The notes under the pieces were generated by a model. That model saw only the letters and a program-made list of their open reading frames with translations, did no database searches and was not told the origin of the DNA. A DNA stretch of 63,798 nucleotides, counting the filler, from Licmophora abbreviata (taxonomy: Eukaryota), in assembly GCA_900291995.1 (NCBI GenBank). It is 10 parts of 10 records of this genome, joined end to end, with 100 filler letters (N's around TTAATTAATTAA, not from the genome) between each part and the next. Parts side by side here need not be neighbours in the genome. Positions count along the whole stretch, not along the records: positions 39,412 to 43,206 come from OLMU01003286.1; 9 more parts are not named here. One strand, 5' to 3'. How positions within the stretch are numbered: position 1 is the stretch's first letter; every line of letters begins with the position of its first letter. This document shows positions 19,901 through 41,338 of this stretch, piece by piece. A program made the translations under genes and the position numbers.

Positions 19901-22900
19901 TCCTGCCAGAGGGACGTATGAGTCACGGAGTGAGTGCTCAATCTTCTTTGAAGTGGATGGTCCATATCGTTGCATGGTCCTCCCTTCGAGCACGGAGGAA
20001 GGCAAGCTTCTCAAAAAGCGATATGCAGTCTTCAACTTTGACGGATCTCTCGCCGAGCTCAAGGGTTTCGAGCTCAAGCGACGTGGAGAGTTGGAGTTGA
20101 TCAAGACATTCCAGTCTCAGGTTTTTGAGCGTTTTCTGGATGGAGATTCGCTGGAAGAGTGCTACGCCAGTGTTGCAGACGTGGCCAACCACTGGATCGA
20201 TGTTTTGGACACGCAAGGCGAGAGTCTAGAGACAGACGAGCTCGTTGATCTGATTAGCGAGAATCGAAGCATGAGCCGCCAGCTTGAGGACTACGGGGAC
20301 CAGAAAGGGACCTCTCAAACGACAGCTCGCCGTCTCGGAGAATTTCTTGGGGCTGAAATTATCAAAGACAAAGGGCTAAACTGCAAGTTCATTATCGCTG
20401 AACAACCGTACGGAGCACCGGTCACGGAACGCGCAATACCCACTGCGATCTGGAAAGCCGAACCTGCCGTCATGAAGCACTACCTCCGCAAATGGCTCAA
20501 ATCCCCTGGACTTGGGGCCGAGGAGCTCGACATTCGGAATGTGCTGGACTGGGATTACTACGTACAGCGCCTCTCAAAAACGATTCAAAAGATCATCACG
20601 ATTCCCGCTGCCTTGCAGAAGTTACCAAATCCTGTTCCAAGAGTCAAACATCCTGACTGGCTCTATAGCAAGGTTCNNNNNNNNNNNNNNNNNNNNNNNN
20701 NNNNNNNNNNNNNNNNNNNNTTAATTAATTAANNNNNNNNNNNNNNNNNNNNNNNNNNNNNNNNNNNNNNNNNNNNCTGACTGGCTCTATAGCAAGGTTC
20801 GGCAGCTGAACGATCGATTCCAGCAAAAAAGCATTCGGAGCATGTTCATGCCGAAGACTAAGCTTCTCGGAGATATCGAAGACTTCGGCGCGAGAGGCAC
20901 TGAGAAGCGTCCCGTCGTCCACATGGCAAAACCGCGAAGTCGAAAGAATTCGAAGGCAAACCAAAGTTCTGCGGAACAGTCCGAAAAACCTCGCGTAGAG
21001 TTGTCGAAGGAATGCTTTAGCGGATGGTTGGCACAAAAAAAGGCTCGATGGAGGCGTGAGAGGGTCAATCGGAAGAAGAGAGTTCATGCGACTCGGAGCG
21101 TTGGCACCGTCGAGTCTGGACCCGTCACGAAAAAGTCCAAACTGGCTGCACGCAGCGTTGAAGGATACATTCGAGATGCAGCTCGTGCCCTATCACAAAA
21201 GGAATGGCAGATCGTGGAAGTTCGAGAATTGACTTACGATTCGAGAGGGAATGGCTCTTCGTCTAGTGGGGACTTCGTGTTTTGGGTAATGGTGGGTGCA
21301 GATACGCTCCAGAAAGTCAACGTGACAGTGCCGCGAACTGTGTACGTGACCTGTCGATCTGAGATCAAGACGACCATATCGGATATCGCGCTGAAGAAGG
21401 TTGAGAAGCACTTACCTCACAACAAGGACGCGACCCTCACGTATGAAATTTCGCTGCCAGAGCACATCTTTAAGACGAGGAAGTGGACTCAATTCCTTGT
21501 CCCCGCCAACGTCGGCGAATCGGATCATGCTCTCGAGAGCGTGTTCGAAAGTAAAACTCCTCTGATGCTGCGGGCTCTGATGTCACTTGGCTGTGTTATG
21601 CGGACGGAATCGTCTGAAAGCGTTGGTCGGAAGTCATTCGCGCTGAGCGACCTCCGGCGTGTCGACAATCCCACAGAGGGAGAGTACCTTCACCGGCATC
21701 TGTCGTACAAGCGAATCTTCCTCTATGTAAGCGTAAACTCGAGAACCAAGACTGGCATAGTTTCTCTCTTCACGATGGGCTACTGGGATGGAACGAGTAT
21801 GCACTCGTCCGAAGGCGAGGAGGATGAAGATCAACTGCATCGTCACGACCTGACGAGACCCTCAGCGTCGCCAAAACGCTCTTTCAAAATGAGTGCATCG
21901 TGTCATGTGTGGATAGTCAAACCGGGATCAAGTAGATCGAACCAACGGAACATCACAGCAAAAGGCTGTGAACAAACCTTTTCCAACCTTCTCGATACAA
22001 TTCAGCATCTGTCGACCGAAGCGGAGACTAGTGGGCAGACGACTGAATATAGCTGTGTTTCACCGNNNNNNNNNNNNNNNNNNNNNNNNNNNNNNNNNNN
22101 NNNNNNNNNTTAATTAATTAANNNNNNNNNNNNNNNNNNNNNNNNNNNNNNNNNNNNNNNNNNNNCAAAGTGTAACATTTCGAGTCTAAACTTCTCCAAC
22201 AGCGAAGAAGACGCGCTGGGGGCTGCAAACGAGGTAATCAGCGCGTACAGCAAAGGCAACAACGGCCCTACTTTCCTTCTCTTGAACAGCAGCAAACCCG
22301 TCAAACAACTGCGAAAGGCCGTCCCCACTCTCAATGCTTTTCCCGTGGTAACTCTTCCTTTCCCACCTGGTCCTGCTCACAATCCATCCATGGTTACTCT
22401 TCCTGCGCTCAACTGGGAACAGCCTGCTATGCAGATTTGTATGGAAGCCTACTTTTACATGGGCGCTGTATCATTCCCGAAGCGTGTCATGTTCTCGAGA
22501 TATGGGCGCGTACCTATGGGGAACCTCGGTCAGGATGAAAGCGTTGCGCTGTATGACATTGGTCTGGCACGCCAACTTGTGAAGAGTAGATCCCTCCTTT
22601 GGGCAAGCGAGACACCCGGCTCACCGGACTTGGGAGTGGATTTTCTTCCTGCAGATGACGGAGGAGAATTCCCTCCCGGCAGCGCCAATGGAATGCACTC
22701 AAACCAAAACGATCTATGGGGCGACGAAGACGAGCTAGTCAGTCCTGTCATTCGCCGTCCAGGATCGTATCGCTGCGTATGCGCCGAGATCGAGTTACAC
22801 GACGTGGCGATTGCAGCACTCACAGATATCTCCTCTGCCTCTACCATTGTCGCCGCGAACGGGTCAGGGTCGCACTCCGAAGGGCTGAACCGTCCATCTC

Positions 22901-38478: not shown

Positions 38479-38823
38479 TCACACACGAGAAGGATAAAGC
38501 ATGACACGAACACGTCCACCAATGGCTTGAGGCGGCAAATTACGATGGAAACGGCACCGGACAACTCCATTGGAGCCATGCGAGCGGCAGACCTTTCCCC
38601 ACGTGACTCGAAACTTGTTTCCAAACTTGTCTGCAGTCTTGGCCTTGGTGATGAAGGCAACTTTCTTTCCGTAGTAGAATTCGGCATCTTGGGTGCTATC
38701 GACGCCCTTGATCTTGATGAGGGAAATACTGTTGTTTTGGGTGCGCAGGCCTCGCTTGTATCCCAAAATGGCGCCATCGACGTGGAGGCGAGGCGGTCGC
38801 TTTGTTGTTTCCGAAGAAGACAT
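38479..38823 (-). CDS. RPL35A: 60S ribosomal protein L35a (eL33); putative 5'UTR intron 39167-38888
   Basis: RLHVDGAILGYKRGLRTQ...WGKVCRSHGSNGVVRCRF..NLPPQAIG.RVRVMLYPSRV. Confidence 0.97.
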   Translation of the reverse strand: MSSSETTKRPPRLHVDGAILGYKRGLRTQNNSISLIKIKGVDSTQDAEFYYGKKVAFITKAKTADKFGNKFRVTWGKVCRSHGSNGVVRCRFHRNLPPQAIGGRVRVMLYPSRV

Positions 38824-39311
38824 GATTTCAAATGATAAAAAGTGGAGTGCTGCTGGACTTGTTGGCAGTAGTAGTGCAATGCAAGAACTAGAGGGGAAAA
38901 GACAATAAAAGAGGCGAGAATGATCAGTGGGTGCAGGGGATCGCTCTAAATCGCTTCGGTGCTCGTTCGACTAAACCGACTGACTCGAAACACAGCAAGA
39001 CGACGGCGCGACCATGAGCAAGTCAGTCCTCGTCTCCGTTCTTCTTGCCACCGCTGTCCAAACCTAGTCTCCCCCTCTCGTTTCCAACTCTTTCCTCTGA
39101 TTCGTTTGTTTCTTTCCTTTCTTCGTATCATGGTGCAGCAGCAGCAGCAACAACAACACGCACTCACCCTCTCGCAACGACGACACCGATGATAACTGTG
39201 TGTGTGCGGTCCGAAGTGTGCATGTCTGTGTACCCATAACCTATAGTAAACGGTAAAACAGTCAGCCCCCACTCCACTCAACGTAGACTGCAGTACTATT
39301 TTCTACAAGAA

Positions 39312-39411
39312 NNNNNNNNNNNNNNNNNNNNNNNNNNNNNNNNNNNNNNNNNNNNTTAATTAATTAANNNNNNNNNNNNNNNNNNNNNNNNNNNNNNNNN
39401 NNNNNNNNNNN
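39312..39411. other. Artificial assembly spacer
   Basis: Linker; the flanks overlap by 8 nt (TACAAGAA), so the two sides are probably contiguous. Confidence 0.95.
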
Positions 39412-39840
39412 TACAAGAACTGCATTTGGGGCGGCTCTCACCGCACACCCAAACACAGTTCAGTATACGATAGCATCACATCTAGTGTAGAGACACAGTG
39501 TGTGAGAGAATAGTCTCGACGACGCGACAAGAGCTGTTTCAAGGTACGACGAAGGATGGAGGCACAGTGAGAGCAGGACGGATAGAGAGGCCATCGATCC
39601 GATTGGGTAGTAGATACAGAGAGAGAGATGCGCAAGGAAAACGAACTGAACACCCCTCCCTCGTCATGGTTGCGTCCGTCGTGCGCGCGCGTGGTGTTGG
39701 GCAATCAGGACGACGGACTGTTGCAACGATCGATGCAAGCGTCACATGCCGAAACTTTGTATTTTTTGGTTGGTTCGTCAGCTGGCTACTCACTCACCCT
39801 TGCGCTATCGGTTTCTCCTTTGTAATCTCTCTCTCTCTAG

Positions 39841-40508
39841 ATGGTGCGCATGTCAGTACTAGCCGATTGTCTCAAGACCATTTCAAATGCTGAAAAGCGT
39901 GGTCGGCGACAGGTTCTCATCAGGCCATCCTCCAAGGTGGTCATTAAATTCCTGCAGTGCATGCAGCAGCATGGTGAGTTCGTTCATATGACTTGACCAA
40001 GTACAATCAATCCATACAGACGGGGACACTTTTCTGTTTCGTGAGCGCCACCACGGATGGATATTATAATTCATTTGGTGCGCTGTTGCTGCCGTGACCC
40101 GAGACAAGTCATTGATCCCCCAAAATAGAAACATCGGGCGCAGGAAATACACTCACGGAACCAAACTATTGCAGTAGAGGTCCTCCGCCGTCTCGTGCGC
40201 CACAATTTTACTCATGGTGTCTCTTTGTTTCATACTTTATATAAATAGGCTACATTGGAGAATTTGAAATTATCGACGACCATCGCGCCAACAAGATTGT
40301 GATTGAATTGACGGGACGCATCAACAAGTGTGGTGTCATTGCTCCTCGGTTCGATGTCCCGTACACGGAAATTGAAAAGTGGATTGTCAATCTCTTGCCC
40401 TCCCGCCAGTTTGGTCATGTCATTCTCAGCACGACCTATGGGATCATGACCCACGAAGAGGCGCGTCGTAAAAAGACGGGTGGGAAGATTCTTGGATTCT
40501 TTTACTAA
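39841..40508 (+). CDS. RPS15A: 40S ribosomal protein S15a (uS8/S22); exons 39841-39973 and 40249-40508; 5'UTR intron 39544-39840
   Basis: [75 protein letters not shown]...GGKILGFFY. The ATG is directly preceded by a pyrimidine tract and TAG. Confidence 0.98.
40015..40207 (+). ncRNA. Candidate structured intronic RNA (possible H/ACA-like snoRNA or cis-regulatory fold) in RPS15A intron 2
   Basis: Nested complementary segments found by eye (see findings) and an ACA triplet at 40202-40204. No family recognised. Confidence 0.35.
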
Positions 40509-40630
40509 GTAGAAATTAGTACTAGACTCAGATGAACAGCAAACGAGAACGTATTAAGGATGTGATACTCTAGCACTGCGCACTACTCTACAAGGAGCAT
40601 TGTATGATATGATTGGTACTTGTGTCCTCA

Positions 40631-41338
40631 TCACACAAGCCCATTCTCCAAGGACGCAGGAGGATGCACGGGCATCCTCAGGCTGTCCATCATGTTCTGC
40701 TCGTACTGTAACAAGACTTGCTCTACCTCGTGTGAGTTGGAGGCGTGTTGCAGCGACAAACACCGCCGAGGTGTCGCTCCCTTTTGAGTGAGGAGTACCG
40801 ACGATTCGGGGTAGAGTTGGAGCAAATGTTGAATGATGGACGTCGATGCTCCGACACTGCAGGCAACGTGCAGTGGCGTCCAGCCTCGTTTGTCACTGCA
40901 GCGGGCTGATGACGGCCGAGTGTCCAGTAGCAGATGGATCATGTCGGGATTTGCACCATTGGACAGGGCATAGTGGATTGGGAGTCTTCCCAGTAGGTCC
41001 GCTTGTAAACATGCATCAGGAAAGTGTTGCAACAATAGACTGACGACATCATAATTGGCCGTTTTGCGACAGGCAATGTGCAGGGGCAGTCGTTGATAGG
41101 CAGACTCGACCAGTCGACATGACTCGGGGTAGGCCAACACCAAGGTCTCAATCATGGCGTACGGCACCCGCTCGTTGCAACACGCCTCGTGAATGGGCAG
41201 GACTTCTGCACTCTTGACTCCCTCGAAGAAGCCTGCTCGTATGGCCCTTTGCTTGGTCCATGCCGGTTTCGAACGACAGACACGCATCGCGTGCTCCCAC
41301 TCTTCCGAAGTGATGTACTGAGACAGTTCGGAGGGCAT
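40631..41338 (-). CDS. Ankyrin-repeat protein (LPLH type)
   Basis: VLPIHEAC, RLPLHIAC, GRLPIHYAL, GWTPLHVAC. Confidence 0.85.
   Translation of the reverse strand: MPSELSQYITSEEWEHAMRVCRSKPAWTKQRAIRAGFFEGVKSAEVLPIHEACCNERVPYAMIETLVLAYPESCRLVESAYQRLPLHIACRKTANYDVVSLLLQHFPDACLQADLLGRLPIHYALSNGANPDMIHLLLDTRPSSARCSDKRGWTPLHVACSVGASTSIIQHLLQLYPESSVLLTQKGATPRRCLSLQHASNSHEVEQVLLQYEQNMMDSLRMPVHPPASLENGLV

Follow-up and report, generated by a model that had tools for sequence, protein, structure and literature searches.

Ribosomal proteins that bind their own transcripts are a classic form of autoregulation in bacteria, and S8 represses the spc operon at the level of translation through a mimic of rRNA helix 21, a stem with conserved bulges and base triples. 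The proposal considered here concerns the same protein family and the same concept of binding to the own transcript, but its target is splicing rather than translation. A closer parallel is yeast RPS22B, which also encodes uS8 and has a 557-nt intron lying wholly within its 5'UTR. Excerpts of two reports (PMC7732827, PMC13232506) describe experimental autoregulation of this gene, in which a conserved 180-nt structure of the 5'UTR intron is needed for the approximately 12-fold repression by excess Rps22. With several AUGs inside this intron, the mRNA must be spliced before it can be translated (PMC7732827, in part), and the second intron of the gene carries the H/ACA snoRNA snR44 (PMC4937481, in part). 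The authors of PMC13232506 report that they were unable to align the yeast uS8 site with that of bacterial S8, so there is no eukaryotic uS8 consensus against which a candidate could be tested. Two further yeast systems are relevant: the RPL30 pre-mRNA, in which a protein-bound structure adjoins the 5' splice site (PMC13232506), and the "zipper" or bridging stems of introns of the RPS17B type (PMC4937481). Our literature search returned no paper on uS8/RPS15A feedback or on 5'UTR introns of ribosomal protein genes in diatoms.

The original prediction held that the RPS15A (uS8) 5'UTR intron in Licmophora abbreviata folds into a long nested stem over its branch point and pyrimidine tract, a candidate for splicing autoregulation by uS8 that was likened to yeast RPS22B. 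The parallel is real and stronger than that prediction had it, as the yeast gene is experimentally autoregulated (excerpts of PMC7732827 and PMC13232506). The window, by which we mean the whole 63,798-nt stretch of DNA analyzed, has in common with RPS22B the protein family, a 5'UTR intron, a coding intron with an H/ACA-type RNA, and intronic AUGs. It is likened by layout, not by sequence. The "Hooks" structure of RPS22B is conserved across Saccharomycetaceae, proven by mutation, and equipped with an Rnt1 site, whereas conservation, covariation, and above-chance stability were not detected in the window. Among RPS22B-type features, the location of an intron in the 5'UTR of a uS8 gene was found, and a structure conserved among relatives was not. 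The parts of the gene are as follows (a slash within a motif marks a splice junction here and below).

39412 to 39543, plus strand: non-coding first exon, ending TTTCAAG; this is its largest possible extent, with a conserved CAAG/GT junction
39544 to 39840, plus strand: 5'UTR intron, 297 nt, GTACGA...CTAG, placed from sequence and comparison
39841 to 39973, plus strand: RPS15A coding exon 1, from M1 through base 1 of codon 45
39974 to 40248, plus strand: coding intron, GTGAGT...ATAG, phase 1, placed from sequence and comparison with relatives
40249 to 40508, plus strand: RPS15A coding exon 2 with the stop codon, placed from the Ribosomal_S8 profile match

The gene is RPS15A/uS8, as had been predicted. 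Its two coding exons, on the plus strand with the ATG at 39841, both match the Pfam profile Ribosomal_S8 (PF00410), exon 2 with 41.4 bits (cut-off, 24) over profile positions 41 to 126 and exon 1 with 22.9 bits over positions 3 to 38. The sequence signals of a GT-AG intron occur at 39544 to 39840, directly before the ATG: GT and AG at the two ends, a branch-like motif, and a tract of pyrimidines. This stretch starts as CAAG/GTACGA and ends as CTCTCTAG/ATG, with the acceptor TAG at 39838 to 39840 and its AG (39839 to 39840) abutting the ATG. The branch-like CTCAC at 39789 lies 52 nt before the acceptor, two copies of CTCAC fall within 39789 to 39797, and pyrimidines make up 0.80 of the last 40 nt.

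Relatives came from metagenome contigs scanned with the exon-2 protein, and the best 80 of 272 confirmed loci were used; exon 1 was available from its first codon in 66 loci, comprising the 49 closest and 17 more distant ones. Of the 49 close loci, 42 have an AG before the ATG (34 of them a YAG), versus 3 of the 17 distant loci, and a pyrimidine-rich run is present in 30 of the 34 close loci that read YAG/ATG. CAAG/GT (AAAG/GT in two) occurs 186 to 424 nt upstream in every one of the 24 distinct loci that could be delimited among those with at least 150 nt of sequence before the ATG. When distinct introns are counted, the window included, CAAG/GT is present in 23 of 25, and CTCAC lies 21 to 92 nt before the acceptor in 20 of 25. 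The sequences between these splice signals are unalignable among the orthologous 5'UTR introns, and the only upstream pieces that the window has in common with the 80 loci are 13 to 18 nt at the exon/intron junction. It is this combination of conserved CAAG/GT, branch-like motif, pyrimidine tract, and YAG/ATG around an unalignable interior that leads us to take 39544 to 39840 as an intron. On these sequence hallmarks and the conserved position, it is very probably a genuine 5'UTR intron whose place has been kept in many related algae, in agreement with the predicted 5'UTR intron whose acceptor abuts the ATG.

A different reading would dispense with the intron: transcription would start within 39544 to 39840, the CT-rich tract would be a leader or initiator, and the complementarities within this stretch would be promoter DNA. 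Such an arrangement could be seen in L002, L016, L029, and L027, where the ATG follows ...TTCAAG or ACC and no pyrimidine tract is evident. However, CAAG/GT, the branch-like motif, the pyrimidine tract, and YAG/ATG are jointly conserved in 23 to 25 distinct loci, and the exon-end motif TTCAAG reappears fused to the ATG in L002, L016, and L029, although these three contigs are themselves ambiguous. We consider a start of transcription inside this stretch highly improbable.

Several loci (L003/L004, L005, L007/L012, L014, L015/L017, and L035) keep the 5'UTR intron while the coding intron is absent, and within the available DNA they lack the intronic RNA described below as well. The L005 contig may be either genomic DNA or a transcript that has been spliced in part. 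A search among the loci for a pair of contigs of the same species with and without introns found none, the closest pair being L005 and L037 at 93.5%.

The 5'UTR and coding introns differ at their 5' splice sites. T occupies position +6 in all 20 coding introns versus 10 of 25 5'UTR introns (Fisher p = 1.2e-5), and the window reads GTGAGT at the coding intron versus GTACGA at the 5'UTR intron. In the 5'UTR introns this site departs systematically from the consensus, which fits regulated splicing. The window's 5'UTR intron holds five ATGs (39556, 39628, 39666, 39733, and 39746) and the first exon (39413 to 39543) holds none, so unspliced RNA would be expected to translate poorly.

We rejected the idea that an early upstream ATG serves as a fail-safe, as local composition accounts for its early position. 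The median position of the first ATG is +17 in the 25 5'UTR introns versus +39 in the 20 coding introns, and when nt 7 to 100 of the 5'UTR introns are shuffled the median is 18, with 44.8% of shuffles as early. The strong start context ACCATG occurs in the first 31 nt of 7 of the 25 5'UTR introns (L018, L023, L024, L025, L035, L038, and L046); it is absent from the window intron, where the first ATG, at 39556, reads AGGATGG.

The predicted fold of the window intron comprises the following parts.

39615 to 39646, plus strand: 5' arms of the three outer stems, namely the (AG)n run, GCGCAAGG, and ACGAAC (from sequence, fold, and repeats)
39669 to 39727, plus strand: apical hairpin, a 9-bp perfect stem of GTCCGTCGT with ACGACGGAC plus GTTGC with GCAAC (from repeats and fold)
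39773 to 39838, plus strand: 3' arms of the outer stems, namely GTTCGT, CCTTGCGC, and the CT-rich tract, enclosing the branch-like CTCACTCAC at 39789 to 39797 (from the fold)

All four complementary pairs named in the original prediction exist in the sequence, and both the minimum free energy (MFE) fold (-88.3 kcal/mol) and the centroid use them. From the outside in, the stems are (AG)n with (CT)n, the 5' arm being TACAGAGAGAGAG at 39615 to 39627; GCGCAAGG (39630 to 39637) with CCTTGCGC (39798 to 39805); ACGAAC (39641 to 39646) with GTTCGT (39773 to 39778); and the apical hairpin, in which GTTGCGTCCGTCGT (39669 to 39682) is complementary to ACGACGGAC..GCAAC (39710 to 39727). A repeat search recovers a 27-nt pair of 78% complementarity (39615 to 39641 with 39813 to 39839), together with an 11-nt (AG)n with (CT)n pair and pairs of 9 and 8 nt. 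The CTCAC motifs are predicted to sit in a loop between helices, as had been proposed, with a predicted pairing of 0.26 for the branch motif and 0.68 for the pyrimidine tract.

The long nested stem is thus present and folds as described, but it is neither more stable than shuffled sequence nor shared with relatives. Folding, the check that the original prediction itself had named, gave the intron as a whole no advantage over dinucleotide shuffles (mean, -95.9 +/- 5.1; z = +1.50), of which 187 of 200 equal or exceed its stability, and in a second set of 30 shuffles its z of +1.76 was the highest of 26 orthologous introns. The sub-window 39611 to 39840, chosen post hoc to hold the stems only, reaches z = -1.68 (12 of 200 shuffles as good), the apical hairpin region 39665 to 39731 reaches z = -1.40 (18 of 200 as good), and the minus strand of the intron is likewise unremarkable (z = 0.43). 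The duplex between the last 60 nt of the intron and the upstream part has a predicted energy of -45.8 kcal/mol; shuffling the upstream part gives a mean of -41.3 +/- 4.1, with 14.8% of 500 shuffles as good, and shuffling the 3' end gives -46.5 +/- 4.2, with 53.8% of 500 as good. The modeled stability of the nested stem is not above chance, in a z-score test whose power is low, as the covariation-supported RNA of the coding intron reaches only z = -1.48.

Conservation, the second check, likewise went against the stem. In blastn searches of the region upstream of the gene against the 80 loci the best E value was 1.0, and the intron interior has no alignable relative; this precludes a covariation test of the window stems. 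Even L013, the nearest relative among the best 80 of 272 loci with approximately 81% coding-DNA identity, has an unalignable intron, and its predicted architecture is the opposite of that of the window (0.77 for the branch motif and 0.21 for the tract, compared with 0.26 and 0.68). Over 25 introns the pyrimidine tract is predicted to be paired to an extent of 0.02 to 0.85 (mean, 0.40, less than the intron-wide 0.56), and over 26 orthologous introns the MFE z has a mean of -0.51 and a median of -0.39, with five values at or below -1.97 and the window highest. In these predicted folds, a looped branch motif combined with a paired pyrimidine tract is not an architecture that the relatives share with the window, not even L013; this is a failure to find it among the available relatives, which include no close congener, and not a disproof.

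Composition offers a simple source for long-range pairing. The share of purines declines from 0.56 to 0.31 over the length of the 25 5'UTR introns, from 0.71 to 0.27 in the window intron, and from 0.49 to 0.36 in coding introns, and a purine-rich 5' part with a pyrimidine-rich 3' end favors such pairing by composition alone. The duplex of the upstream part with the 3' end averages -32.7 kcal/mol when both come from the same intron versus -31.4 kcal/mol when the partner comes from another, and 332 of 5,000 permutations are as low. The window's own long-range duplex (-45.8) ranks second of 25 partners, approximately 2 SD below the non-cognate mean, which is the one hint in favor of the model originally proposed.

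The explanation that we favor, and regard as reasonably probable, is that 39544 to 39840 is an ordinary spliceosomal 5'UTR intron of uS8, spliced so that ...TTTCAAG joins the ATG. Its position would be old and kept across related lineages, and its interior would evolve freely. The nested stem would be mainly a by-product of the opposition between a 5' part rich in purines and a 3' end rich in pyrimidines, of the (GA)n and (CT)n repeat pair, and of a few complementarities of chance size (6 to 9 nt). The most likely role would be constitutive removal, which the five upstream ATGs would make necessary for a translatable mRNA, and in a highly expressed gene a promoter-proximal intron may also aid expression. 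The non-consensus GTACGA leaves room for tuned splicing, but nothing links such tuning to the fold or to uS8. Against this explanation stand the duplex that ranks second of 25, the stem-only z of -1.68, the off-consensus 5' splice site, and the weakness of the z test, as well as the autoregulation of yeast uS8 through a 5'UTR intron (excerpts of PMC7732827 and PMC13232506) and a covarying structure in another clade.

That structure emerged from an all-against-all comparison of the introns, in which a block of 45 to 55 nt recurs at the intron 5' end in L031/32, L035, L038, L045, and L042. It forms a hairpin with an outer stem, asymmetric internal loops (ATTTT and CCATAG), and an inner stem.

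L038, 2066 to 2126; L045, 2072 to 2132; L035, 38 to 105; L042, 378 to 430; L031, 2003 to 2063; L007, 1 to 62: clade hairpin, 4 to 10 nt after the 5' splice site

In an alignment of five sequences, 93.8% of cells pair, versus 15 to 42% with the partners displaced, and both sides have changed in 3 of 10 pairs, in a set that amounts to only about four independent sequences. In addition, intron positions +3 to +14 are complementary to the stretch directly 5' of CTCAC over 12 bp in L045, 10 bp in L038, 9 bp in L035, and 8 (+5) bp in L031, with two compensatory changes in the L035 helix. A covariance model of the hairpin, run on 73 sources, matches those clade loci only, plus a truncated copy in L007. 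Run on the window with filters off, it scores 2.7 bits at best, and the element is absent there; the L038 hairpin has no match in Rfam at E <= 10. A hairpin with two internal loops 4 to 10 nt after the 5' splice site, as found in L031, L035, L038, L042, and L045, is reminiscent of the structure in RPL30, from which the window differs in having no such hairpin. Judged from these sequences, structured control of the 5'UTR intron somewhere in the group is credible, and the hairpin-and-helix element of L038, L045, L035, L031, and L042 is a better-supported candidate than the window stem. This clade is also a better target for work on uS8 feedback than the stem first proposed.

For the window itself, a feedback model would have excess free uS8 bind the nested stem or the apical hairpin and block splicing, leaving an unspliced RNA full of upstream ATGs that would go untranslated or be degraded, as in yeast RPS22B. 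The gene family and layout agree with that system and its approximately 12-fold repression (PMC13232506 and PMC7732827, both in excerpt). The five upstream AUGs in the intron, the weak 5' splice site, a centroid fold that retains the stems with the branch motif looped and the pyrimidine tract paired, and a related clade whose covarying hairpin adjoins the 5' splice site all speak for the model. However, the fold is not above chance, neither its sequence nor its architecture is conserved (L013 included), and the element of the other clade is absent from the window, with 2.7 bits as the best score. Nor does a eukaryotic uS8 binding-site consensus exist to guide the comparison, the yeast site being unaligned with the bacterial one in the excerpt of PMC13232506. 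We consider it decidedly unlikely that the window intron works in this way; uS8 feedback appears plausible in general for the gene family, and an RNA switch in the window is no more than a possibility.

Pairing could also act without a protein, as a bridge or zipper that either brings the splice signals effectively closer together or exposes the branch site in a loop, which would help the splicing of a fairly long intron. The RPS17B-type zippers are alike in that long-range pairing lies near the splice signals of an intron in a ribosomal protein gene. A true helix from the 5' splice site to the branch site is found only in the relatives L031, L035, L038, and L045, where +3 to +14 pairs next to CTCAC and L035 shows its compensatory changes. 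The window's branch motif, flanked by two helices, is predicted to be largely unpaired (0.26) and the cognate duplex ranks second of 25, but the pairing in the window joins the pyrimidine tract to a region 70 to 100 nt from the 5' splice site and stays at chance level. The segment proximal to the 5' splice site has only a 6-bp partner there (GACGAA with TTCGTC), and its duplex ranks fifth of 25. Over the 25 introns, duplexes of the 5' end with the branch region are no better when cognate than when non-cognate (-17.6 versus -17.2; 1,610 of 5,000 permutations). Moreover, the window stems pair the pyrimidine tract and would hinder its recognition rather than help it. We regard a protein-independent role for the window stems as quite unlikely.

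More broadly, uS8 might control the splicing of its own 5'UTR intron in this algal group by way of fast-evolving, lineage-specific RNA structures. One clade would use the hairpin by the 5' splice site and the helix from +3 to +14 to the branch site, and the lineage of the window would use a nested stem that buries the pyrimidine tract. Although we think this unlikely, the layout in common with yeast, with a 5'UTR intron and a coding intron that holds an H/ACA-type RNA, would then point to a uS8 feedback that is ancient or repeatedly reinvented, spanning bacteria, fungi, and stramenopiles. The concept is already known and the demonstration in yeast is recent; a third, distant eukaryotic lineage would tell whether uS8 feedback is ancient. 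What the present analysis contributes is a conserved intron before the ATG, its off-consensus 5' splice site, a covarying structure at the splice signals of one clade, and an undescribed, conserved H/ACA-like RNA.

The last of these lies in the coding intron.

40036 to 40207 (ends approximate), plus strand: conserved intronic RNA with an H/ACA-like layout of two hairpins, from alignment and model

All 28 aligned sequences have an identical ACACTCACG (40149 to 40157 in the window), followed at a fixed distance by a nearly invariant ACA (40202 to 40204). Among 20 distinct coding introns, ACACTCAC is present in all 20, ACTCACG in 19, and AGCGCC and TGACCC in most, and in 25 of 72 sources a model of the 3' half matches once, within the coding intron. 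In the upper stem of the 3' hairpin, pairing reaches 73%, both partners have changed in 6 of 7 pairs, and the covariation of 0.415 exceeds that of shuffles (0.223 +/- 0.026; 0 of 500 as high). The lower stem, poorly registered in the alignment, is 49% paired, and the 5' hairpin and hinge box were read by eye. RNAalifold on the MAFFT alignment returns 0 pairs, the stems being visible only with a supplied structure, and the stability of the RNA is modest (z = -1.48) despite the covariation. With two pocketed hairpins, a hinge, and an ACA, it looks like an H/ACA snoRNA. Searches of Rfam returned nothing relevant for 39300 to 40700 at E <= 10 (a chance match to sroE, E = 3.7), none for six loci at E <= 1 except a chance match to ceN109 elsewhere in L046, and none for the whole window at the gathering score, so that no described family such as snR44 was matched. 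The conserved RNA thus appears to be undescribed.

Upstream of RPS15A, in head-to-head orientation, lies an exon of Ribosomal_L35Ae (eL33) at 38482 to 38970 on the minus strand. Given this orientation, 39000 to 39540 is probably a divergent ribosomal-protein promoter shared by eL33 and RPS15A. Within this region, CATAACC..TAGTAAACGGTAAAAC (39235 to 39259) is followed by CACCGCACACC (39439 to 39449), and the order is kept upstream of orthologues, for example in L015, L021, L033, and L044; both motifs are candidate promoter elements of ribosomal protein genes. Between them lies one of the N44-TTAATTAATTAA-N44 spacers by which small contigs are chained in the window; it occupies 39312 to 39411, 130 nt upstream of the 5'UTR intron, and others are at 20677, 22066, 28068, 36333, 43207, 51755, 54742, and 57533. 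The conserved order of the motifs across the spacer at 39312 to 39411 suggests that its two contigs are truly adjacent. The same 8-mer, TACAAGAA, is found on either flank of this spacer.
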